The notes: generated by a model from the sequence alone, not told the origin. 13,958 nt of DNA from Promethearchaeota archaeon (GCA_018238625.1 JABCSY010000106.1:1-13958), one strand, 5' to 3'. Numbered from the stretch's first letter, positions 2,030 through 13,958 are shown. Numbers and translations: made by a program.

Positions 2030-2833
2030 TCAGAAAGGACTTTTTACGAATCCTCCATCCACTTGGATGACGGTACCAGTTATATAGCTAGCTTTTTCAG
2101 AGGCTAAAAATACTATTAAGTTAGCTAATTCCTCAGGCTTTCCTAATCTTCCTAAAGGGATTTGATTGGTCCACGCTTTTTTAACTTCTTCTTCGGATTT
2201 ACCCGTTTGTGTGACTGTTGTATTAATTAATTCTTTCATTCTATTTGTAAGCGTCGGACCAGGGCACACAACGTTGACTAATATGTTGTCTTTAGCGTAC
2301 TCGTTTGCTAGCGTTTTTGCAAAACCCACAACTCCAAGACGAATGGTGTTTGATAAGACTAAATTATCTAAGGGTTGTTTCACCGAAACTGAAGTAATCG
2401 CAATTATCCTTCCAAACTTTTGCTGTTGCATGATTGGTACAACCAATTCAGAAGCTCTTACGAAGGAAAGAAGATTTAAATTAATCGAATTTTGCCAATC
2501 GCCTTTACTAATCTTATTGATTGGTGCCGAGGGTGGTCCACCGGCGTTATGAACCAGTATATCTATTCTTCCAAATTTCTTTACGGTCTCGTCTACTAAG
2601 GATTTAATTTGAGCCTCCTCATTTAAATCCGAAACTAAAGAAATTATTTTATTATTTGAATTTTTAGGCTTATACTTGCCAATTTCTTCTTTAGCTCGCT
2701 CGAGATTCTCCATAGAGCGACTACTAATTATTACATTTGCTCCTTCGCTATAAAATACCTTAGCACAGGCTAAGCCAAGTCCTTTACTTGAAGCTAAAAT
2801 TAAAGCAACTTTTCCATTTAAACCTAAATTCAT
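2030..2833 (-). CDS. Short-chain dehydrogenase/reductase, atypical 3-oxoacyl-ACP reductase-like subfamily
   Basis: Rossmann motif KVALILASSKGLG plus GRIDILVHNAGGPP, VNVVCPG and IPLGRLGKPEE...ASYITG...VDGG. The catalytic YxxxK is replaced by SNTIR. SD AGGTG at 2843-2847. Confidence 0.93.
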   Translation of the reverse strand: MNLGLNGKVALILASSKGLGLACAKVFYSEGANVIISSRSMENLERAKEEIGKYKPKNSNNKIISLVSDLNEEAQIKSLVDETVKKFGRIDILVHNAGGPPSAPINKISKGDWQNSINLNLLSFVRASELVVPIMQQQKFGRIIAITSVSVKQPLDNLVLSNTIRLGVVGFAKTLANEYAKDNILVNVVCPGPTLTNRMKELINTTVTQTGKSEEEVKKAWTNQIPLGRLGKPEELANLIVFLASEKASYITGTVIQVDGGFVKSPF

Positions 2834-3177: not shown

Positions 3178-3633
3178 TTAATCTGGAGTGAGTTCGTCCA
3201 AGTCGCTTAAATCCAGTCCAGAGTCGAAGGATTCAGGTATATCTGATAAAAATTCGTCTAAAATTTCCTTTAATTCGTCTCCTGAACGCTTAAGTATTAA
3301 TCGAATTAAACCAATATTTATGTCAGGATCTGAAATAAGAGTTAGTACGCCTTTTGGACCACAACTTGAGGCGAAAATTTTACCCCCGAGAAATTCGCTC
3401 GTAACAATCTCCAAACCGCCTAATTCCAGGTTCTTACCTTGTTCCTCTGACGCGCAGAAAACCGCTGAAGCTATTGCGCCAATCCCGTCGACATCAGCTG
3501 GAAAATAGGAAAACTTCGAAACGCTCGCAATTGTTAAACCAGTTCTATCAACCAAAATTACCTTCTTGATTCCGCTCTCGGACTTTATAATCTTCGAAAG
3601 AATATTATCAAAACTTTTTGTATCAATTGACAA
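3178..3633 (-). CDS. Roadblock/LC7 (MglB/LAMTOR-like) domain protein with an acidic C-terminal tail
   Basis: Roadblock pattern: helix, GIKKVILVDRTGLTIAS, DGIGAIASAVF helix, LEIVTSEFLGGKIFASSCG, VLTLIS, NIGLIRLILKR. TTG start with GGTG at 3640-3643. Confidence 0.9.
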   Translation of the reverse strand: MSIDTKSFDNILSKIIKSESGIKKVILVDRTGLTIASVSKFSYFPADVDGIGAIASAVFCASEEQGKNLELGGLEIVTSEFLGGKIFASSCGPKGVLTLISDPDINIGLIRLILKRSGDELKEILDEFLSDIPESFDSGLDLSDLDELTPD

Positions 3634-3803
3634 TTACTACACCACTCTTATTTTAATAACTTAACTTATAATTATATTAGATTTTTAGATTTAAATTTGT
3701 TATTATTATAAAAAAAGTATATGTTTATAAAAATATGCTTTTCCTAGTCGTTTTCAAATTAGGCAAGGGAAAAGTAGGAAAAGTAATTAAGCGTAGAAAA
3801 TCA

Positions 3804-5021
3804 TTATAGGAGATTATTTTCTTTAACAATTTTTTTATAATGATCTCTTTCTCGTCTTAATACTTTGACTTCCTTTTTAAGATCTAACGATTGATCTTTT
3901 AACTTCTTTTTTTCTTCATCTCCACTTGAGATTTTAGATTTAAGGTTTTTGGCGTCAAGTTTTAAATTTGTTATCGTGTCAATATGGAGTGCAATTTGGT
4001 TTTGGGATTTCTCAACTTCGTTTTTTGAATTTTTAATTTCTTTTTCTAGGCTTTCTACTTCAGAATTTAAACTAACGTTAATAGTTATTAAATCTTCTTT
4101 TTCTCGAATCATTACTTCGGCTTTTTCATCAAATTCATCTACACTTGTCAATTTTATCGAAAGCTCTTCGATTTTCCTCTCTTTTTCCTTTAAGAAGTCA
4201 TCCCTTTCAATTATTTTCTGATTTAAATTTTTTACATCGTTCATTAATTTCGCGTTGTTTTCGTTAAGATCCGCCATTTGCTGGCTCCATTTCTCAAGTT
4301 TTATGTATTGTTCGCTTATTTCCTCTTTGAGAGCTTGAATCTCCTCGATTTTTGTTGTATTCTCCGATGTAAGTTCGGTAAACTTTCTAGTTAATTCTCT
4401 AATTTTACTCTTTTTTTCCTCTATAAGACTTTGAAATTCTGTAATTTCACTTTTTAAATCTTCGTTTTCTTGCAGAAAATCTGCATTACTAACCTCGCTC
4501 ATCTGTTCTTCAACCATTTCACTCTTGACATCTTCAATCTCTTCAGTATCTTTTTTTTCATCTTCTTTTTTAACAACAATTACGCTTGTTTCTCCCTCAA
4601 TGATTTCTTCCCAGTAGGAAGTTAATTCTTCCTTCTTTAACATTTCATAATATTGACCTAAAATATCGTCGAAATTCAGCGCTTCCCTTTTCGGTAATAA
4701 TTCGTGAGCAATTCGTCGCATCATTCCTTCAAACTCGTTAGAAAGAACATCATCTTGAGATAAGAAAATGATTATCGAGAAATTAGGTTTTCCCACATAG
4801 TGTCTAAATGAAAATCCCGAATAGAAACTTGCTACGCTAATCTCGTCGTCTAATTTCATTTCGATGTAATTAGGTTCCATCTTTTTGTTCAGGTGGTGTT
4901 CGATTAAATCTTTTAAGAGATTTGGGGTCACTCCTAAGAATTCACATATATTAATTGGGAATTGCGTATCTATATGTGTTTCAGAATTTTCTTCAAACCC
5001 TACAATTATAATACCTTTCAA
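3804..5021 (-). CDS. N-terminal longin/uDENN-like domain fused to a long coiled coil
   Basis: aa 1-130 form an alpha/beta domain starting MKGIIIVGFEENSETHIDTQFP, which parallels MAIGIALFGWDKKIGSVIEVKYP at 5774. An acidic linker follows. aa ~180-405 are an E/K/L-rich heptad coiled coil. TTG start. Confidence 0.7.
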   Translation of the reverse strand: MKGIIIVGFEENSETHIDTQFPINICEFLGVTPNLLKDLIEHHLNKKMEPNYIEMKLDDEISVASFYSGFSFRHYVGKPNFSIIIFLSQDDVLSNEFEGMMRRIAHELLPKREALNFDDILGQYYEMLKKEELTSYWEEIIEGETSVIVVKKEDEKKDTEEIEDVKSEMVEEQMSEVSNADFLQENEDLKSEITEFQSLIEEKKSKIRELTRKFTELTSENTTKIEEIQALKEEISEQYIKLEKWSQQMADLNENNAKLMNDVKNLNQKIIERDDFLKEKERKIEELSIKLTSVDEFDEKAEVMIREKEDLITINVSLNSEVESLEKEIKNSKNEVEKSQNQIALHIDTITNLKLDAKNLKSKISSGDEEKKKLKDQSLDLKKEVKVLRRERDHYKKIVKENNLL

Positions 5022-5225
5022 TATTCTACAACTTCACAATTTAAATTTAAAAAATTTATTTCTCCAAAACAAATCACACGTTTCATTAAAGAATAATGTT
5101 TTGCGCTTTATCTATATTTCAATCTAAATTTAGTTTTTGTAAACAATTTAAACAATAAGAAGTAATTTATTTCTTTAAACATCTTTTTTTCCGATTAAGC
5201 AATAAATAGGGCAAAAATTAGGTAT

Positions 5226-5591
5226 TTATTGCAGTAGTTTTTTTACTAATTCTCTGAATTCTTGCACTTTAATTGGTTTAGAAATGTATTGTTCGAAGCC
5301 AGCAGCTAATATCCTTTCTTTATCTCCCTTCATGGCAAAAGAAGTAACCGCAATAAATGGAATATCTTTGAATTTATCTAATTTTTTTAATTCTGAGCAA
5401 ATTTCTATTCCATTCATTTCAGGTAATTGAATATCCAGAATAACTAAATTGGGATTGCTGGATTTAATTAGCTCAAATCCTAAATCTCCCCGAGTTTCCT
5501 CAAAAATCTCGATATCTGGAATCAATTTTAAAATCGCCCTAAATAATTTCATATTTTTTTCGTTATCCTCTACAACATAAACACTTTTCAT
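5226..5591 (-). CDS. Stand-alone response regulator receiver, DivK-like (121 aa)
   Basis: VVEDNEKNMKLF, ILD53IQLPEMNG, AVT83SFAMKGD and YISK105P are present, with no output domain. ATG 5591 is preferred to the ORF-track start 5618 because GAGGT lies at 5596-5600. Confidence 0.95.
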   Translation of the reverse strand: MKSVYVVEDNEKNMKLFRAILKLIPDIEIFEETRGDLGFELIKSSNPNLVILDIQLPEMNGIEICSELKKLDKFKDIPFIAVTSFAMKGDKERILAAGFEQYISKPIKVQEFRELVKKLLQ

Positions 5592-5695
5592 AAGGACCTC
5601 ACTTTTTCGAAGACACAATTATTTATTTTAGTAAATGTAAAGAGTTTTTAATCTAATATATCCTCTTTATTTAGATATGTTTATATGTATCATTT

Positions 5696-5703
5696 TTTAT
5701 AAA
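5696..5703. promoter_or_regulatory. Candidate palindromic TATA box (TTTATAAA) in the divergent receiver / GTPase intergenic region
   Basis: TTTATAAA reads the same on both strands and lies between divergent starts at 5591 and 5774. The region is very AT-rich, so a chance match is possible. Confidence 0.3.
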
Positions 5704-5773
5704 TTATTTAAATTTGCTTCTTTACAAAAATACAAAAATCAACATTAGAATAAATTAGAACAAGGCTTTTAAT

Positions 5774-7090
5774 ATGGCTATTGGAATTGCTCTATTTGGT
5801 TGGGATAAAAAAATTGGTTCTGTGATTGAGGTTAAATATCCTAAAAGCCTCGATTTAACCGCGGATCTAATAAACAAAATCTATATGACTTTTGCGTATA
5901 GCGAAGACTTTGATAAAGAAGAATTAATTGAGACTAGCTATAAAGAGCAGACAATTCTATCTTATTGCGATAAAACCAGAGTAGCTAAAGTAGGATATGA
6001 AATCGTAACCCTTATTTTGGAAGAAAAAGAGAATGTAAATATTTTCAAGATAAAAAAACAGTTATTAGAATTTGGGAAAAATACATTTAAAAAAGAAAAA
6101 AGCGAGCGTAATCAATTTTTTCTCGATAACGTTGGAATCTTTTTTGAAACAAGTTCAGCAAAGAAAATCTTATTATTGGGGCGAGCTGGTACTGGTAAAA
6201 CAAGTATTAAAAAGATTATATTTGAAGGTGTGGATCCGAAAGATTTGCTATATAACCCTCTTGAGCCAACACGGGGTATAACACCTTCTGTTTATTCATG
6301 GTTAGATTTAAAACTAGGTTTATTTGATTCTTCAGGGCAAGAATTAAGCTTTTTATTAGAAAACGAAGAAGATCGCGAACATATTTTAGCTTTTGATAAT
6401 ACAGATTATATCGTTTATTTATTTGATTACCCAGGCTGGATTTCACAATCTCAAGACCTTGTTACCGAAATTCAAAAAATTCAAAAAATACTTAAAAAAA
6501 ATTCTTATAGCACAAAGCTATTGCTATTCTTTCATAAAATTGATTTAATTGGAAAAGATATTGATAATAAAATTATAGATGAAATTTCAGCTAACATAAA
6601 AAAACATTTTGATATCCCGCTATACTTTACAAGCATACATCCCGATTTGATTTATAGTTTATACAATGCTTTTTATGAAATCTTAAGTATATCGTCTAAT
6701 GAAAATATCAAATTAAAAGAAATTTTAGAGAGTGAAATTAAATATTTTCAAAAAACAATGTTTTTTATTACAAATACGCATAATAGTATTGTCGTTCAAG
6801 TTATGTCGAAAGATTTTAACACGACAATTATAAATCATACACATAAACTTGTGGCGCAGTTAAATCAAACTTTTGAAGATATGACAAAAAGCGGAAACAT
6901 AGATCATCTTATACTTTCGAGTTATGATAATCTAAATATTATTATGAACAATACTAACTTGCCTAAATTTAGTCTTAAATATTTAATTTGCATTTCAGAA
7001 ACAGCGACAGCAAACAAATTGATTTGGTTAGTTGGTCAAATAAGAAGCAAACTTAAGGATCTTTATTATTTTAATAAATCAAACAAATAA
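5774..7090 (+). CDS. Rag/Gtr-like small GTPase with an N-terminal uDENN/longin-like domain and a C-terminal roadblock-like domain
   Basis: G1 GRAGTGKTS, G2 LEPTRG, G3 DSSGQ, G4 HKID and G5 TSI; HKxD and TSI are Rag/Gtr-type. The N-terminal 125 aa carry the WD-x3-G-x6-YP hairpin typical of uDENN longins. The C-terminal ~130 aa show a helix-strands-helix-strands-helix pattern like the Rag roadblock domain. Confidence 0.85.
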   Translation: MAIGIALFGWDKKIGSVIEVKYPKSLDLTADLINKIYMTFAYSEDFDKEELIETSYKEQTILSYCDKTRVAKVGYEIVTLILEEKENVNIFKIKKQLLEFGKNTFKKEKSERNQFFLDNVGIFFETSSAKKILLLGRAGTGKTSIKKIIFEGVDPKDLLYNPLEPTRGITPSVYSWLDLKLGLFDSSGQELSFLLENEEDREHILAFDNTDYIVYLFDYPGWISQSQDLVTEIQKIQKILKKNSYSTKLLLFFHKIDLIGKDIDNKIIDEISANIKKHFDIPLYFTSIHPDLIYSLYNAFYEILSISSNENIKLKEILESEIKYFQKTMFFITNTHNSIVVQVMSKDFNTTIINHTHKLVAQLNQTFEDMTKSGNIDHLILSSYDNLNIIMNNTNLPKFSLKYLICISETATANKLIWLVGQIRSKLKDLYYFNKSNK

Positions 7091-7094
7091 TAAA

Positions 7095-8630
7095 ATGAGT
7101 AAAAAAGTAATTTTTGTGGGCCCATCTGGAGCCGGGAAGACAACGCTACGAAAAATCTTTTTTGAAGGCGAGAATTCTTCAAAATTATTAGAATATGCCT
7201 TAGAACCCACATTTGGGGAAGAATCGCTAATATTACGATTACCCAAGTTAAGTGAAGATGTTGGGATATTCGATTTAGCAGGGCAAGAAAATGAGAGATG
7301 GCTTGAAACTGAAGAGAGATCAATTTTCAATAATACTAAAGTAATTTTAGTCATAATTGATGTAACTGCAAGTCTTGATTTCATTCTTGACTTTATAAAA
7401 AAAGTTTTAGAAGTTCGAAGCTCAGCAACCCCTGATTCGTTTATTTATGTTTTGCTTCATAAAATAGATTTAGTTGGTCAAAAAAAAATTAGAGATATAA
7501 AAGCGGGAATAAAAGGTGCTTATTCTGAAGTAAAATCAATAAAGTTCCTATTTACAAGTTTAAAAAAGCAATATATTACTCAAACTTTTTCTTACTTTAT
7601 TGATATTATGAAAAAATGCTTAGATGATGTTATTCCTGAAGACGGTTTAATGTTTAATGTAATTGACGAATCAATTAAAATCGTAAGTATCATTGATACA
7701 GAAGTTTCAATTTCTAAAAAAGAAATTCAAGAAAAGTTAAATCGCCCAGAAAAATTAATCGATTACTTACTTGAAAGTTTAGTAAATAAGGATCATGTTG
7801 AAATAACATATGTAAAAAGTCAAGAAATCCTTAGTTTAACAGAAAAAGGTAAAGATTATTTTAAAGATATTTTAAAACCGTTGTCTACGGGATATCTTAA
7901 AGAATCTGAAAAAGGGACTACTATCTTAGAACCTCCTTACGAAGAAAAGATTCCCTCGTTTATCGGAGCTTTTATAGCCGATAAGGATGGGAGGACATTA
8001 CTGTCGATCGAATTGTTTGAAAACGCACTTGAAAAGTTTATAGGTAGCATTCCAAACAATGAAGATACTATTCCGATTGATCTTGATCTAATTCCGATGT
8101 TTATTAGTGCCTTAGAAAAATTTTCTTTAGAATTGAATATTAAAGATTTAAGTGGTTTTAGTCTGAAAGGAAGCAACTTAAAAATGAATATTTTTGGTTA
8201 CGAGGATTTTACTGTTACATTTTTTATGAATCCTGATATAAACATAGACCCAGTCCAAAATAAAATATATAACTATTTTAAAAATATTTTTGAAGAATAT
8301 GAAAAAGATTTTGAAAATGCGCTTACTTCAGGGCAAATAGACGGCCTTTTCCCCGTAATTGATCAAGGAAGAAAATGGTTAGAAGAACTAAATCAATCGT
8401 ACGAAGAAATGATAATTAACTTGGAAATTTTCGATACGGAACATGCAAAAATTCTGTACAGTAAAATGGATGAGTTGTATAAAAGAGTAAACATTAAATT
8501 TTCGATGACTCTTGAAAAAATTAAAAAATTAAAAGTGAATCTAATGAAAGCAATAATCGAAAACGATGTAGAAGAGCTCAAAAAGATCGCAGAATCAACA
8601 AAAAATTTAAGCGCAAATTATACTATTTAA
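7095..8630 (+). CDS. Rag/Gtr-like small GTPase fused to a winged helix, a longin/roadblock-like domain and a helical tail
   Basis: G1 GPSGAGKTT, G2 LEPTFG, G3 DLAGQ, G4 HKID and G5 TSL. aa ~190-260 look like a wHTH (SKKEIQEKL...IDYLLESLVNKDHV...LSLTEKGKDYF). aa ~288-410 (FIGAFIADKDGRTLL...LIPMFISALEKFSLEL) look like a longin/roadblock fold. It starts 4 nt after the previous stop. Confidence 0.85.
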   Translation: MSKKVIFVGPSGAGKTTLRKIFFEGENSSKLLEYALEPTFGEESLILRLPKLSEDVGIFDLAGQENERWLETEERSIFNNTKVILVIIDVTASLDFILDFIKKVLEVRSSATPDSFIYVLLHKIDLVGQKKIRDIKAGIKGAYSEVKSIKFLFTSLKKQYITQTFSYFIDIMKKCLDDVIPEDGLMFNVIDESIKIVSIIDTEVSISKKEIQEKLNRPEKLIDYLLESLVNKDHVEITYVKSQEILSLTEKGKDYFKDILKPLSTGYLKESEKGTTILEPPYEEKIPSFIGAFIADKDGRTLLSIELFENALEKFIGSIPNNEDTIPIDLDLIPMFISALEKFSLELNIKDLSGFSLKGSNLKMNIFGYEDFTVTFFMNPDINIDPVQNKIYNYFKNIFEEYEKDFENALTSGQIDGLFPVIDQGRKWLEELNQSYEEMIINLEIFDTEHAKILYSKMDELYKRVNIKFSMTLEKIKKLKVNLMKAIIENDVEELKKIAESTKNLSANYTI

Positions 8631-8635
8631 ACAAA

Positions 8636-10783
8636 TTAATTGTTCTCTAATTTTGCTTTATTCTCTAATTCTTTTGGAATGTTAAACGTAAACGTTGACC
8701 CTACTCCTAAAACGCTAAAAAAACTAATTTCCCCTCCATGCAGTTCTATTAGGCGTTTCGTTAAGGATAAACCTAAACCAGTGCCTGGTACAGAACGTAC
8801 ATAAGTAGACTCCACTCTTTGAAATTCCTTAAAGATTAACGGGAAATCTTTATTAGCAATTCCAATACCCGTGTCTCTTACCTTAAAAATCCAATTATAG
8901 TAATCCCCTTTAATTACTAAAGTTATTTTTCCATCTATGGTGAATTTTATTGCATTACTTAAGAGATTTATTAAGACCTCCTTAAATCTAATAGGATCAG
9001 CATAAATGAATTCTTCTTCTTCTAATCCTTTCACTTCCAAATCGAGATTTTTTTTAGAATAAAGAGGTTTTAGGTTTGATTTGATTTGCTCAACCATCGA
9101 ATTTAACGAGAACTTTTGAATATTAAGGTTTAATTGTCCAGATTCAATTTTAGAGATATTTAAAATGTGTTTGATCATGTCAAATTGGTGTTCTGCAGAG
9201 TCTTTAATATCTGCGATAAATTCGTTTTGTTCTTTATTTAATTCTCCATAAACACCCTCTAATAAAAGGTCGGCAAAACCGATAATTGCGTTTAAGGGCG
9301 TTCTTAATTCGTGAGACATCGTTCCCATAAATTCGGTTTTAAATTGAGACGATTTTGCAATTTGATCCAAAAACAATTTTTGCTGCTCAAGAGCCATATT
9401 CAACTCTTTTGTTCTTTTTTGAACTTCGATCTCCAATTCTTCTTTAAATTTTTCTTTTAAAAGTTCTCCATTTTTCTTTTCTGTAATATCTTGGAAAAGA
9501 AATTGTATCAAGGTTTTATTATTATGTTTGATTATCGATGCTTGGAGGGTTACCCAAATATGTATTCCATCTTTTACTTTAACTTGAATTTCAATTGGCT
9601 CGGGAAAATCTTTTTTAAAAGACGCTTGAAAAATTAATTTAAAAAACCCCTTGATTTCCTCTGGAAATACTTCTGCTAAATCGTTGATAGATTTACCGAT
9701 AAAATATTTTTTATCATATCCAAAGACTCTTTTAGTCGTTGAATTGGAATCGATAACCATTCCCTTAAAATCAATTAATATTATCGCATTGGGTGAATTT
9801 TCAAACAAATTCTTATATCTCTCTTCAGCAAACTTGCGATCGGTAATATCTCTTGAAACTATTAATCTTTTTAATTCTCCGTCTTTATTACGAAATGCCT
9901 GTCCTCTACATTCAAAACTTATCCAACGACCTTCTTTATGTTTAAACCTTAATTCGACAGGCGATATTCCTGTTTTAAAGCTTGTTTTCAGAGCTTCAAT
10001 TGCTCTTTCAGTATCTTCTGGATGTACAAAATCCAAACATGATCTTCCAATTATTTCTTCTTTTAAATAACCTAATAATTTTAAAGCAGTTATGTCGTTG
10101 ATATATTCAAATTTAAATTTAGAATCAACTATTGAGATCAAATCGTTTATATTTTCAATAATTAATCTATATTTTTCCTCCGAATCTATCAACAATTGCT
10201 CTGTAACATCTCGTTCAAGAGCATTTCCTATGATTTGTGAAGAAATTCGTAATAACGAAAAGTCTTCTGTTTTCCATTCCCTCGTATTTTCAACGTTATC
10301 GAAGCCAATAAATCCTGCCAAAACTCCTTTAACATATAAGGGGTATGTAATAACAGATTTTGTATTTTGTATTTTTAGCAATTCTTTCGTTGATTTAGCT
10401 TCTTCAGGTAACTCAGAAACATCGTTAATGTGAATTATATTTCCACTTTTAAGTTGTTCCATCCCCCAAGGAAGCGTCGCAAATTTTAAATCCTGAAAAA
10501 TATGGATTTGCGAAGATACGCCTTCAGCACACCATTCATGAGTGTTATTCATAATTTTCTTTTCTTCGTTAAAAAGAAAAAGATAAACACGACTTGCACC
10601 ACTTACAATGCCCATATCACGCAGCGACGCGTTAATATCCTCGTCTAAATCTAAATTAACAAGGAATCTAGACGAAATTGTTGAAATTAGTGTCTCTAAA
10701 TCAGACCAATTTTTAATCGTTTTTTCAACTTGTTTAATTTTCGCCATATTTTCTTCCAAAATTTCTTTTTCGTTACATATCAT
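8636..10783 (-). CDS. Soluble sensor histidine kinase, GAF-PAS-PAS-HisKA-HATPase
   Basis: GAF (RVYLFLF...NTHEWCAEG...GFIGFD) and two PAS domains (VHPED...RDITDRK; QDITEKK). H-box MSHELRTPLNAIIGF with the His codon at 9311-9313, N box NLLSNAIKFT, G1 DTGIGI, G2 GTGLGL. No TM segment. An alternative ATG lies at 10747. Confidence 0.96.
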   Translation of the reverse strand: MICNEKEILEENMAKIKQVEKTIKNWSDLETLISTISSRFLVNLDLDEDINASLRDMGIVSGASRVYLFLFNEEKKIMNNTHEWCAEGVSSQIHIFQDLKFATLPWGMEQLKSGNIIHINDVSELPEEAKSTKELLKIQNTKSVITYPLYVKGVLAGFIGFDNVENTREWKTEDFSLLRISSQIIGNALERDVTEQLLIDSEEKYRLIIENINDLISIVDSKFKFEYINDITALKLLGYLKEEIIGRSCLDFVHPEDTERAIEALKTSFKTGISPVELRFKHKEGRWISFECRGQAFRNKDGELKRLIVSRDITDRKFAEERYKNLFENSPNAIILIDFKGMVIDSNSTTKRVFGYDKKYFIGKSINDLAEVFPEEIKGFFKLIFQASFKKDFPEPIEIQVKVKDGIHIWVTLQASIIKHNNKTLIQFLFQDITEKKNGELLKEKFKEELEIEVQKRTKELNMALEQQKLFLDQIAKSSQFKTEFMGTMSHELRTPLNAIIGFADLLLEGVYGELNKEQNEFIADIKDSAEHQFDMIKHILNISKIESGQLNLNIQKFSLNSMVEQIKSNLKPLYSKKNLDLEVKGLEEEEFIYADPIRFKEVLINLLSNAIKFTIDGKITLVIKGDYYNWIFKVRDTGIGIANKDFPLIFKEFQRVESTYVRSVPGTGLGLSLTKRLIELHGGEISFFSVLGVGSTFTFNIPKELENKAKLENN

Positions 10784-10795
10784 AATTTAAATGGT

Positions 10796-12829
10796 TTATA
10801 ATTTACTCAAAAAGGATTCTACTTTTTTTTCTCCGCTAACTTTATTTTTCAAATTTTTAGGGATTGTAAAAGTAAAAGTTGTACCTTTTCCTAATTCACT
10901 AGTAAATAAGATATTTCCTCCATGTAGGTTAACTAATCTCTTAGTTAAAGCTAATCCTAACCCTGATCCTAGTATAGAATCGACGTAAGCAGACTTGACT
11001 CTCTTAAAATCTTTAAATATTATACTAAAATCCTTTTCTGCGATTCCTATGCCTGTATCTTTTACAATGAAGCCCCATGTATCTTTATTATCCCTAAATT
11101 CAAAAGTTACCTTTCCTTTCTCAGTGAACTTAATAGCATTACTTAGTAGATTATAAATTATCTGTTTAAATTTTATCCTGTCTGCAAATATTAATTGCTC
11201 TTTTTTTAAGCCCTTTTTTTTAATAATTAATCCTTTTTCATTGTATAATGGCATAAATGTTGAGATTACATGATTAACCAGGTTATTTAAATTTATTTCT
11301 TCAACTGTTAAAATAACCTTACCCGCTTCAATTTTTGAGATATCTAAAATGTCAGTTATCATTTCTAAAAGATGGTTAGAAGATTCATCAATATCTTTTA
11401 CGAATTCTTTCTGTTCTTCGTTTAATTTACCAAAAGCACTTTCTGAAAGCAAATCTGTAAAACCAATAATTGCGTTCAAAGGGGTTCTCAATTCATGGGA
11501 CATAGTTGCCATAAATTCAGTTTTAAATCGAGAGGATTTTTCGATCTGATCCAAATATAACTTTTGTTTCTCTAAAACTTCCATTATGTCTTTCGTTCTA
11601 GATTGTACTTCTTCTTCTAACCGTTCAGTGAATAATCTTTTTAAACTTTCTCCCTTTTTTCGCTCTGTAATATCTATTGACGTTCCAATAATTCCTATAA
11701 CATCCCTATTTACATCAATAAGAGGAATTTTACTGGTTAATGCCCATCTCAAACCATCCTTAGTTTTCCATGGCTCTTCATAGTTTATTTTAGGTTTTCC
11801 ACTGTTAATTACTTCTAAATCGTCGTTCCAATATGCTTGTGCCTGTTCTTTAGAATAAAGCTCAAAAAGGCTTTTGCCGACTAACTCTTCTTTTTTCATA
11901 TTATGGGCATCAGCAATATATTTATTTACACGAATAAATTTATTTTTAGTATCCTTATAAAATATTAATGCTGGGATATTGTCCAGAATTAATTCTAACT
12001 CTTTGCTCAGATTTTTGTATTTCTTTTCAGATTCTTTTAATTGCTGTTCTGCTATTTTACGGCTTGTAATATCTCGAGAGACTGCAATAATAGCGGGCTC
12101 ATTTTGATAAAGACTTTGCTTGTCATATATTTCTACTGGAATCCTTTTACCACTTTTTGTTACATGCACAGTTTCGATAATATCTTTTTTTATCCATATT
12201 TTTTCATCAATTAATTGAGGATTTTCAACAATCAACTCTGGTGCAATAATATCACGTACATGCATTTGTAAAAATTCTCTTCTCTCATAACCTAATCGTT
12301 TGCATGCTGTGGCATTGACATCTATAAAATTACCGTCTAAATCAAGAATATATATTGCGTCGTTAATATTATTAAATAAAGTCAGTAATTTTTCTTCAGA
12401 ATCTCTTAGTTTTTGTTCTATTTTTTTCCGTTTTGTAATATCTCTTATGATTCCTATCGCATTCCATTCGCCTTTTACTCGAACTGCTGAAAGAGATAGT
12501 TCTACTGGAAATTCTGCACCATCTTTTCTTATTCCTTCTAATTCAAGTATTTTATTAATAGCAGCACCTTGACCAGACTTTTTGAATTTAGAAAAACCTA
12601 TTTTATGAGCTTTCTGATAACGCTCAGGAGCAATGAGGGAATGAAAATTCTTGCCTAACACCTCTTTTTCAGTATACCCAAATAATCTCCCTGCAGATTT
12701 ATTCCAATAAGTAATTAAACCATCGCTATTCATTTGAATTATTGCATCTTGAGCATACTGGCTCAATAATGTTAATTCTTCTTCTATTTTCTTCTGCTCT
12801 TTAATGTTTGTTGATGAAACAGTTTTCAC
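10796..12829 (-). CDS. Soluble sensor histidine kinase, PAS-PAS-PAS-HisKA-HATPase; the first PAS is FixL-like
   Basis: Three PAS/PAC units end in RDITKRK, RDITSRK and IDITERK. H-box MSHELRTPLNAIIGF with the His codon at 11495-11497, then NLLSNAIKFT, DTGIGI and GSGLGL. GTG start with AGAGGA at 12838-12843. No TM segment. Confidence 0.96.
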   Translation of the reverse strand: MKTVSSTNIKEQKKIEEELTLLSQYAQDAIIQMNSDGLITYWNKSAGRLFGYTEKEVLGKNFHSLIAPERYQKAHKIGFSKFKKSGQGAAINKILELEGIRKDGAEFPVELSLSAVRVKGEWNAIGIIRDITKRKKIEQKLRDSEEKLLTLFNNINDAIYILDLDGNFIDVNATACKRLGYERREFLQMHVRDIIAPELIVENPQLIDEKIWIKKDIIETVHVTKSGKRIPVEIYDKQSLYQNEPAIIAVSRDITSRKIAEQQLKESEKKYKNLSKELELILDNIPALIFYKDTKNKFIRVNKYIADAHNMKKEELVGKSLFELYSKEQAQAYWNDDLEVINSGKPKINYEEPWKTKDGLRWALTSKIPLIDVNRDVIGIIGTSIDITERKKGESLKRLFTERLEEEVQSRTKDIMEVLEKQKLYLDQIEKSSRFKTEFMATMSHELRTPLNAIIGFTDLLSESAFGKLNEEQKEFVKDIDESSNHLLEMITDILDISKIEAGKVILTVEEINLNNLVNHVISTFMPLYNEKGLIIKKKGLKKEQLIFADRIKFKQIIYNLLSNAIKFTEKGKVTFEFRDNKDTWGFIVKDTGIGIAEKDFSIIFKDFKRVKSAYVDSILGSGLGLALTKRLVNLHGGNILFTSELGKGTTFTFTIPKNLKNKVSGEKKVESFLSKL

Positions 12830-12877
12830 TTATTAATTCCTCTTTAAACCTTGTTTTCCTTAAAATTTTGACATAAA

Positions 12878-13759
12878 TTACCCATTCTGTTTATTCAGAT
12901 ATAAAAAAATATGGAAAAGTTCAATGTTTTTATTCTCTTTGCTCTCTTCAGTATTTAGCTGCTCTTTTTCCCAACCAACTTTAAAATAATAAGCTTGATT
13001 TGTTAATTTAAAAAATTTGAAGTTGTCGAAGTTATTTATAAGTCCTAAATGCTCAAGTCTTTGCATATGAAGGTGAGCTTTTTCTAAATCTAAATCAAAT
13101 TTATCTACTAAATAATCTGAGTTATATTTTGAAGTGTGATCAGTCTGTAAAATAATTGAAAGTTCTTTCTTTAAGAATAAAATTTCTTGTTTGCTAATTG
13201 GAATTAAATCACGATGAATTATCGAATTTAAAACGTTTAAAATGATGTTATAAGTGTCATAAAAGAAATCCTTTCCGATTGATGTTTTAAATATTTCAAA
13301 ATCTCCTCCTCTTGGATGCTGAATAGTGATAAACTTTTTTATTGCTTTAATTTTTTGATCAACATATGAGAGGCTTACGAGATCTATTTTGTGCAAAAAG
13401 GCTATTATTTTACATGAGTGTAGATTGAGTTCCTTTATTATTTGATAAATATTCACTAAAAACCTTATTATTGATTCTGTAGAATTCATGATATCAAAAA
13501 TGCAAATAATAATGCTACTTTCGTTAAAAACTTCCTTACCACTCTTAGAAAACCAAATATTGTTTTCTTGCCCTGCTAAATCAAAAATTCCTAAGTTAGA
13601 ATTAAATAAAGAATATATACTTGAATTTACCCCTCTTGAAGGAAGTAATGGATTCTCTAAAAGCGTTAATGGATCACTTTTATCAAAATAGATTTCCTTT
13701 ATTGTAGTTTTACCAACACCAGGAGGCCCTACAAACATTACTTTTTTATCGCTAATCAT
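12878..13759 (-). CDS. Rag/Gtr-like small GTPase with a C-terminal winged helix
   Basis: G1 GPPGVGKTT, G2 LLPSRG, G3 DLAGQ, G4 HKID and G5 TSI. aa ~195-262 look like a wHTH (LVDKFDLDLEKAHLHMQRLEHLGLI...FKLTNQAYYF). Confidence 0.87.
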   Translation of the reverse strand: MISDKKVMFVGPPGVGKTTIKEIYFDKSDPLTLLENPLLPSRGVNSSIYSLFNSNLGIFDLAGQENNIWFSKSGKEVFNESSIIICIFDIMNSTESIIRFLVNIYQIIKELNLHSCKIIAFLHKIDLVSLSYVDQKIKAIKKFITIQHPRGGDFEIFKTSIGKDFFYDTYNIILNVLNSIIHRDLIPISKQEILFLKKELSIILQTDHTSKYNSDYLVDKFDLDLEKAHLHMQRLEHLGLINNFDNFKFFKLTNQAYYFKVGWEKEQLNTEESKENKNIELFHIFLYLNKQNG

Positions 13760-13780
13760 ATCATCCCTTTTACATTACTT

Positions 13781-13957
13781 TTAATTAATTGTTGACGCTT
13801 TTGGTTTTTCAAGAGCTTCAATTATTTCTTTACATGAATCTAACATCATTTCAATGTAATTCATTAAATCCTGTTCAGAAACCTTTCCACTTCTTTTTTG
13901 CTCTTGAATTAATTCACAAAAACCTTGAATGGTATTAACTCCACTTCGTATTTGCAT
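13781..13957 (-). CDS. Degenerate HisKA/DHp-like protein, probably the 3' part of a gene running off the window edge (not in the ORF track)
   Basis: Manual translation gives MQIRSGVNTIQGFCELIQEQKRSGKVSEQDLMNYIEMMLDSCKEIIEALEKPKASTIN*. It aligns with HELRTPLNAIIGFxDLL...EQxEF..DI.DS..H...MI of the adjacent kinases and stops before any HATPase domain. Confidence 0.7.
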   Translation of the reverse strand: MQIRSGVNTIQGFCELIQEQKRSGKVSEQDLMNYIEMMLDSCKEIIEALEKPKASTIN

Positions 13958-13958
13958 G

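Follow-up and report, generated by a model that had tools for sequence, protein, structure and literature searches.

A Co-Inherited Gene Module of Histidine Kinases, a Receiver and Rag-Like GTPases in Loki-Type Asgard Archaea

In a 13,958-base stretch of DNA from a Promethearchaeota archaeon (GCA_018238625.1, JABCSY010000106.1:1-13958), referred to here as the window, a group of signalling genes was analysed which encode two histidine kinases (g6 and g7), a stand-alone receiver (g3), three Rag-like GTPases (g4, g5 and g8) and the end of a predicted longin-hairpin fusion protein (g9). Kinases, receiver and Rag-like GTPases were found to be a conserved module, co-inherited beyond chance, and its gene content, domain architectures, catalytic motifs, conserved neighbourhood and co-inheritance are described below. 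The cassette looks like a hybrid signalling circuit of bacterial-style kinases and eukaryote-like Rag GTPases. In the best explanation, it would be a lineage-specific cassette of one Loki-type Asgard order (Promethearchaeia), in which a cytoplasmic phosphorelay is functionally coupled to the GTPases; to this reading we give even chances.

Rag-, Arf- and Rab-like GTPases number in the dozens in Asgard archaea, which also encode longin and roadblock proteins. According to the text of Tran et al. 2024 (PMC10933270), the genome layout rarely shows which regulator serves which GTPase, and the roles of the GTPases are open. The cassette is an exception, in that it names as partners the two sensor kinases and the receiver, the Rag-like pair g4-g5 with the further Rag-like GTPase g8, and a predicted longin-hairpin fusion. 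If the coupling is true, Rag-type switching and a longin GTPase-activating protein (GAP) would have been wired first to a prokaryotic phosphorelay, which would bear on the origin of eukaryotic nutrient signalling. The Rag-like GTPases of Asgard archaea, and a predicted folliculin-type longin, thereby gain partners that can be tested, and a looser version of the arrangement is present in the cultured strain MK-D1 (L068).

Conservation and Co-Inheritance of the Module

The window is the entire contig C90 of a genome of 4.29 Mb (201 contigs, about 30% G+C). A sequence-only reading had listed ten consecutive signalling genes between positions 3178 and 13958; open reading frame (ORF) calling with Pfam and NCBIfam matches counts nine. 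The placement of ORFs and domains in that reading was borne out, a longin label for g2 excepted. Its gaps of 21, 48 and 12 nucleotides (nt) along g9>g8>g7>g6 are exact on recount, and the receiver gene is, as stated there, divergent from the GTPase pair g4-g5, with a spacer of 182 nt when measured from the ATG at 5591.

The same reading had grouped kinase, receiver and GTPase into one system, and conservation of synteny in relatives was set beforehand as the test by which this could be refuted. For one genome per species, 57 loci were labelled by our own ORF calling and phmmer, and 33 of these hold a g4 orthologue (53-93% identity). Synteny holds: a histidine kinase is located within 8 kb of g4 in 29/33 loci, g5 adjoins g4 in 29/33, and a g3 orthologue lies within 8 kb in 25/33, being both divergent and adjacent to g4 in 21/33. 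In the four loci lacking a kinase, the contig ends no more than 3.7 kb past g4. Within the same distance, g9 was identified in 12 and g8 in 13 of the 33 loci. The association of kinase and GTPase survives rearrangement of the gene order; a kinase directly abuts g4 on the same strand in six loci, and in L027, L030, L031 and L039 the order is g9>g8>kinase>kinase>g4>g5 on one strand. The genome has 36 HATPase_c matches in its 4.29 Mb, and a random 17-kb span holds one with a chance of about 13% by an arithmetic estimate. A looser related arrangement is found in another genus, including the MK-D1 locus.

The grouping is also borne out by co-inheritance. Among 24 genomes of the same genus, g4 (E<=1e-128), g5 (best E<=1e-97) and g3 (E<=1e-35) occur in the same ten (G003, G006, G008, G015, G016, G018 and G020-G023), and the other 14 contain none of them, six of these module-free genomes being at least 98% complete. 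An orthologue of the g6 sensor region is present in 9/10 module genomes and in 0/14 others, and the same counts were obtained for g9. Orthologues of g8 were identified in seven of the ten module genomes, plus one paralogue elsewhere. In the 16 genomes outside the genus, g3-type receivers (E<=1e-35) occur only in G031, G036, G038 and G040. These four are also the ones in which a g5 orthologue was identified at E<=1e-70, receiver and g5 being located together.

A second operon of the same genome, on contig C57 (9705-13833, minus strand; L080), consists of genes for an ArsR winged helix protein (111 amino acids, aa), an Arf/Rag-like GTPase (183 aa), a MASE3-PAS kinase (739 aa) and a receiver protein (298 aa), in this order and with gaps of 29, 31 and 64 nt. 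Winged helix and GTPase are separate genes here, whereas g8 fuses both. As a side observation, one contig titled Odinarchaeota (L025) carries g3, g4 and g5 orthologues 72% identical to the Loki-type cassette, which is probably a binning or labelling issue and not a true Odin occurrence.

The Two-Component Proteins

Both kinase genes are located on the minus strand. The g6 gene (8636-10783) codes for a protein of 715 aa with the Pfam architecture GAF-PAS-PAS-HisKA-HATPase_c, and g7 (10796-12829) for a protein of 677 aa with three PAS domains followed by HisKA and HATPase_c; together they carry five PAS/GAF sensor domains. The H-box HELRTP was identified at residue 491 of g6 and residue 445 of g7. 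Neither protein has a hydrophobic segment, no 19-mer exceeding a Kyte-Doolittle (KD) value of 1.02 in g7 and the maximum being 1.36 in g6, so that both are predicted to be soluble.

The receiver gene g3 (5226-5591, minus strand) has an ORF which extends to a TTG at 5618; orthologues use the ATG at 5591. Its product is a stand-alone Response_reg protein of 121 aa (E 2.9e-23), in agreement with the earlier description as a receiver without an output domain, and E8, D9, D53, T83 and K105 do not vary among 31 sequences. With the H-box histidine, the combination of HisKA and HATPase_c and the catalytic residues of the receiver, g6, g7 and g3 have the sequence features by which two-component proteins are recognised.

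In the divergent g3/g4 spacer, an A+T-rich block with two TATA-like elements is located at 5670-5716. In a MAFFT alignment of 23 orthologous spacers, the columns with at least 80% identity are concentrated in this block and not elsewhere in the spacer. The block is probably a shared core promoter region for g3 and g4; it is also a possible regulator site.

The Rag-Like GTPases

The g4 and g5 genes are located on the plus strand and are separated by 4 nt. The g4 gene (5774-7090) codes for a protein of 438 aa with a predicted longin domain (1-123), a Rag G domain (129-305) and a roadblock domain (309-433). The product of g5 (7095-8630, 511 aa) is predicted to contain a Rag-like G domain (1-176), a winged helix (208-248), a roadblock/longin-like domain (289-401) and a helical bundle (403-508). 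On the minus strand, g8 (12878-13759, 293 aa) codes for a Rag-like G domain (1-180) with a winged-helix-like tail in place of a roadblock domain; g8-type proteins align to residues 2-261 of g5, which correspond to G domain plus winged helix.

The Pfam model Gtr1_RagA (cut-off 22 bits) matches g4 with 78.7 bits (E 5.7e-22), g5 with 53.8 bits (E 2.3e-14) and g8 with 53.0 bits (E 4.2e-14), a model which also gives matches in the E. coli and M. jannaschii controls. All three proteins carry GxxxxGKT, DxxGQ and HKID, the last of which is the G4 motif with HKxD in place of NKxD, at residue 254 in g4, 122 in g5 and 123 in g8. The HKID of g8 aligns to HKMD of RagA, and g8 finds only RagA and Gtr1 among PDB sequences (best E 2.5e-6). 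For the Rag-like GTPases tested, PDB sequence matches were restricted to RagA, Gtr1, RagC and Gtr2. By G domain and HKxD motif, g4, g5 and g8 can be assigned to the Rag/Gtr family.

Since isolated g4 N-terminal, g4 C-terminal and g5 C-terminal domains gave nothing meaningful in Pfam, their folds are predicted from the topology of AlphaFold2 models and from structural alignments with Rag proteins and LokiRagO. In the g4 model, with a predicted local distance difference test (pLDDT) value of 85.2, residues 1-123 show the longin topology bbabbbaa and residues 309-433 the roadblock topology abbabbba. Foldseek matched the model to full-length RagA, RagC, Gtr1 and Gtr2 (E about 1e-17, TMt 0.61-0.64), and in VIA-align the best match was 8yl2 'LokiRagO' (Z 21.0, 278 aligned), RagC reaching Z 20.0. 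Gtr1 (5.2e-14) and RagA were at the top in phmmer against the PDB. The predicted C-terminal roadblock of g4 is included in the alignment with RagC and 8yl2, which spans residues 129-431.

For g5, with a model pLDDT of 72.7, RagD was closest to the G domain in VIA-align (Z 19.4, root mean square deviation (rmsd) 2.7, 167 aligned); 8yl2 gave Z 18.9 over residues 2-402, but with an rmsd of 14.5. G domains fill the VIA-align lists, so that these say little on the longin of g4 or on the helical bundle of g5. The g5 winged helix has weak Pfam matches to TrmB (0.0068) and HTH_34 (0.028), and after this insertion the model places a bb-a-bbb-a domain which appears to be roadblock-related. The adjacency of g4 and g5 in the relatives is only suggestive of a Rag-type heterodimer.

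Two observations on g5 relatives are added. A paralogous g5-like subfamily (30-34% identity; L013, L014, L016-L018 and L020) has no two-component neighbours and adjoins genes for an ABC ATPase, an FtsX-type permease of 955 aa and a TRAP_beta/CARDB-like repeat protein of about 1,300 aa. In L019 (G018:C346, 9336-10846), a TAA breaks the g5 orthologue into two ORFs, so that either this copy is a pseudogene or the sequence contains an error.

A Predicted Fusion of a Folliculin-Type Longin with a Hairpin without Histidine

Because the window is a whole contig, g9 (13781-13957, minus strand) is cut by the contig end, and only its C-terminal 58 aa are present, with a weak HisKA match (E 0.0069). An N-terminal part of 142 aa was identified on the 2,629-base contig C122 (L079:2204-2629, plus strand), where it runs off the contig end. 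Divergent from it, at 465-1946 on the minus strand, C122 codes for a fourth Rag/Arf-like GTPase (493 aa, Gtr1_RagA 1.6e-20), and in relatives the corresponding place is likewise taken by a GTPase of about 490 aa. C122 continues the locus of the window beyond g9.

Full-length g9 orthologues have 210-242 aa, with Folliculin (PF11704) matching in the N-terminal half and a HisKA-type hairpin in the C-terminal half. The PF11704 matches, obtained in five of six orthologues, are weak (E 5.7e-5 to 9.6e-4), one of them reaching the cut-off; the fragment on C122 also matches, below the cut-off. A GP motif is present in 35/35 homologues, followed by an arginine in 33/35, and the ARG arginine is present in 35/35. 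According to the text of PMC12290439, a GP motif and an arginine finger mark the GAP longins FLCN, NPRL2, SMCR8 and C9orf72, and a class of GP-motif Asgard longins exists for which the client GTPases were left open. In the hairpin, the H-box histidine position is occupied by L, M, V or I (histidine in 0/34). Since no phospho-acceptor histidine is present in any of the 34, g9 would be able to bind but not to relay.

The truncated gene, termed DHp-like in the sequence-only reading, is thus predicted from its relatives to be a folliculin-type longin fused to a DHp without histidine: the HisKA-like tail had been seen correctly, and the longin half had been missed. As a GTPase-regulator fold and a two-component fold would be combined in one chain, g9 is the best candidate for a physical link between the two parts of the cassette. 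The family comprises 288 homologues, all of them 'hypothetical' and none with a Pfam annotation. Among 301 genomes sampled from the whole phylum, 30 contain a member, confined to the families f1 (27/68) and f2 (2/7) with 0/225 elsewhere. The g9 profile showed no relation to the g4 or g5 profiles.

Further out than the fourth GTPase, relatives have a gene for a protein of 281-287 aa in which a receiver domain follows a weak HisKA-like hairpin (L027:432-1295, L036:19155-20000, L030 and L031). This protein, which may act as another relay or output component, was not found in the genome of the window.

Proposed Mechanism and Alternative Readings

For a coupled cassette, four inferred steps can be proposed, which are ranked by likelihood in the order given. 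The kinases g6 and g7 would sense an intracellular cue and phosphorylate g3 at D53. Since g3 has no output domain, it is expected to act through binding of a protein target, the best candidates being the co-inherited pair g4-g5 with which it shares the divergent promoter region. A complex prediction for g3 and g4 gave a score of 0.00 against a mark of 0.32 and, having been made without controls, weighs neither way. The dead hairpin of g9 might dock on the kinase DHp or on the receiver, and its folliculin-type longin, with invariant GP and arginine, might serve as GAP or platform for the adjacent g8. Output would finally be provided by the winged helices of g5 and g8, by DNA binding or protein docking.

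A more far-reaching proposal, which we regard as unlikely, is that the cassette is a prokaryotic counterpart of the Rag-folliculin/GATOR nutrient switch. The phosphorelay would replace TOR, and g9 would be tethered to the kinases by its dead DHp hairpin and be the GAP for a Rag-like GTPase. The state of a Rag-like heterodimer would be set by the receiver in its phosphorylated form, and the built-in winged helix would provide a direct transcriptional output. If this were true, the first regulator-client pairs would be defined for Asgard Rag-like GTPases.

Several points weigh against a functional coupling of phosphorelay and GTPases. It is proposed here from genes, folds, motifs, synteny and co-inheritance, and the direction of signal flow is unconstrained by the present data. 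The E-value thresholds separating orthologues from paralogues were set by the analyst, that of 1e-70 for g5 being fixed after the data had shown the paralogous g5 subfamily, and the counts overstate the support because orthologous loci and sister genomes are not independent. In the window, g4-g5 are convergent with the kinase genes and are not co-transcribed with them. Of the 15 strongest Rag-like genes of the genome, only five have a kinase or receiver gene at a distance of up to 10 kb, so that the link to two-component genes would be specific to a subfamily. The longin fold of g9 depends on sub-threshold Pfam matches and motifs, and a search of the g9 profile against PDB sequences found no FLCN or NPRL2 chain; the best hits were two receiver chains over 30 residues (E 0.021), and a kinase DHp followed at 0.77.

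The wiring might also be reversed, with the GTPases serving as sensors or timers whose nucleotide state controls the kinases. Here g9 would be a GTPase-controlled inhibitor or activator, its hairpin being inserted into the kinase dimer, and the receiver would be the final output or a phosphate sink. The missing phospho-acceptor histidine of g9 and its position at the head of the g9>g8>kinase>kinase array fit such a role, and modulation of the kinase by an accessory protein is described for actinobacterial G protein systems in the text of PMC13343842. However, kinases with five PAS/GAF sensor domains of their own need no external sensor, and we consider the reversed wiring to be improbable. Separate systems might instead be co-located on a mobile or plastic island which collects signalling genes and is moved or lost as a block. 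The patchy occurrence of the module, in 10/24 genomes of one genus, fits gain or loss as a block, and Asgard genomes are rich in both classes, the present one having 40 PF04670 and 30 receiver matches in addition to those of HATPase_c. However, kinase and GTPase genes stay together through inversions and changes of order at protein identities of 53-93%, whereas flanking genes for a short-chain dehydrogenase, major facilitator superfamily (MFS), roadblock and coiled-coil proteins are not kept. In addition, g9 joins both systems in one polypeptide, and the looser arrangement recurs in another genus. A mere co-location thus seems quite unlikely to us.

In its full form, the sequence-only reading had proposed a Ragulator- or GATOR-like assembly in which the receiver acts upstream of the Rag-like GTPases and these are regulated by the roadblock protein g1 and the coiled-coil protein g2. 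Regulation of small GTPases by roadblock proteins is known from MglA/MglB and from Ragulator. In the window, g3, g2 and g1 lie on one strand, and in the relatives g2 is found within 8 kb of g4 in 13/33 loci and g1 in 8/33. However, g3, g2 and g1 are separated by gaps of 204 nt (g3-g2) and 170 nt (g2-g1), a longin fold of g2 is not demonstrable, and g1 and g2 occur in many module-free genomes and travel as a pair of their own, g1 being about 0.29 Mb distant from g5 in the single-contig genome G038. We regard this assembly as very unlikely. The preferred reading remains that of a phosphorelay coupled to the Rag-like GTPases of the cassette itself.

Comparison to Known Systems

The concept and the protein types of the cassette are already in print, so that the novelty suggested earlier was overstated. 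Liu et al. 2020 (10.1101/2020.10.19.343400) described, in the text available, Asgard NPRL2/FLCN-like longin domains fused to two-component domains, and proposed an Asgard growth regulation centred on two-component systems with 'eukaryotic' regulators. The g9 protein would be such a fusion, with its folliculin-type longin carrying GP and arginine and its HisKA-type hairpin. In the accessible parts of Liu et al. and PMC12290439, fusions and motifs are described, but not the cassette with its receiver, Rag-like partners and co-inheritance. For the client GTPase left open in the text of PMC12290439, candidates are named here by the neighbours in the cassette.

Tran et al. 2024 (PMC10933270) reported in their text longin-GTPase-roadblock and GTPase-roadblock layouts for MK-D1 and modelled one operonic Rag-like pair as a heterodimer, the GTPase genes of MK-D1 being generally outside operons with regulators. 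The same domain layouts are predicted here, and 8yl2 is the best structural match of g4. However, 'histidine kinase', 'response regulator' and 'two-component' have no occurrences in the text of PMC10933270 that was available, whereas kinases and receiver are present in the cassette. The PDB holds two Lokiarchaeal Rag-like structures, 8yl2 'LokiRagO' and 9m28 'LokiRagM', for which no paper was found in the open-access literature and bioRxiv. A description of the cassette was likewise not found in open-access and bioRxiv text, Liu et al. and Tran et al. being covered by their running text; a figure or supplement of the former may list it.

The cassette resembles the eukaryotic Rag/Gtr system in the HKxD G domain and predicted C-terminal roadblock of g4, in its structural matches to full-length RagA/C and Gtr1/2, in the second Rag-like gene adjacent to it and, with regard to FLCN-FNIP, in the gene for a predicted folliculin-type longin. 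It differs from Rag/Ragulator/EGO in the extra longin of g4, the winged helices of g5 and g8 and the absence of dedicated Ragulator-like roadblocks. In contrast to TOR-Rag signalling, no TOR kinase is present according to the text of Liu et al., and the input here is predicted to be a histidine-kinase phosphorelay.

For bacteria, links between small GTPases and two-component systems are described in the accessible text of PMC4316618 and PMC13343842 for MglA with RomR, FrzS and AglZ, for the conservons and for the Rup neighbourhoods. In the conservons CvnA-D (PMC13343842, PMC4316618), a small GTPase is likewise combined with a histidine kinase, a roadblock protein and a partner of winged-helix type being encoded nearby. 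A conservon has four core genes, for the kinase-like membrane protein CvnA, the MglB-type roadblock CvnB, the DUF742 protein CvnC and the MglA-type GTPase CvnD. However, conservon kinases are described there as membrane proteins with HAMP and the GTPase as MglA-type, whereas the cassette has soluble PAS/GAF kinases and Rag-type GTPases, a true receiver and a roadblock which is not co-inherited, and it belongs to another domain of life. Pfam searches of the cassette proteins gave no DUF742 match at E<=0.1 or E<=1. Membership in the conservons was rejected on the basis of DUF742, soluble kinases, Rag-type GTPases and the roadblock which is not co-inherited.

The cassette is comparable to Myxococcus MglA-MglB, where proteins with a receiver domain connect to a small GTPase and to its roadblock GAP (PMC4316618, as far as its available text goes). 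It differs in having Rag-like GTPases, in lacking a polarity or motility context and in g1, which is far below the cut-off of the MglB model (24.5 bits against 200). With this score and the Rag-like GTPases, membership in the MglA/MglB systems was rejected.

Flanking Genes

The g1 gene (3178-3633, minus strand) codes for a Roadblock/LC7 protein of 151 aa (Robl_LC7 E 1.5e-9, MAPKK1_Int 4.6e-6), and g2 (3804-5021, minus strand) for a protein of 405 aa with a conserved N-terminal domain of about 140 aa, whose fold is unproven, and a long coiled coil. For the longin label of g2, no firm support was obtained: its N-terminal domain had no Pfam match in 10/10 orthologues and no PDB sequence match, and in Pfam and NCBIfam only coiled-coil matches were found. 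In hhalign, it reached E 0.004 and a probability of 8% against the g4 longin, and E 0.0073 and 5% against g9. The Atlas lead of 0.86 was to a cluster in which NPR2 is assigned on 19% of members.

The proposal that g1 and g2 are dedicated regulators was likewise not upheld, as they are not co-inherited with the module. Present in 33/41 genomes, at identities of 92-99% in the genus and of 75-81% over the order, g1 was also identified in nine same-genus genomes without the module. The g2 N-terminal domain occurs in 17/24 same-genus genomes, seven of which are without the module. In four module genomes g2 is located on a different contig from the module; g1 adjoins it in G016, G018 and G023, and G021 has no g1 match. 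Being present without the module and together elsewhere, g1 and g2 appear to be a conserved pair of their own, merely flanking the cassette in a sub-lineage. In some genomes, a g8-like paralogue (37-42% identity) is located beside g2-g1 (window 3178-5021; G013:C161; L024:4461-7904), which hints at a separate module of GTPase, roadblock and coiled-coil protein around this pair.

Upstream of the cluster, two MFS transporter genes were identified at 2-586 (partial) and 729-2015. A short-chain dehydrogenase gene (2030-2833, minus strand) adjoins the cluster in closer relatives only.

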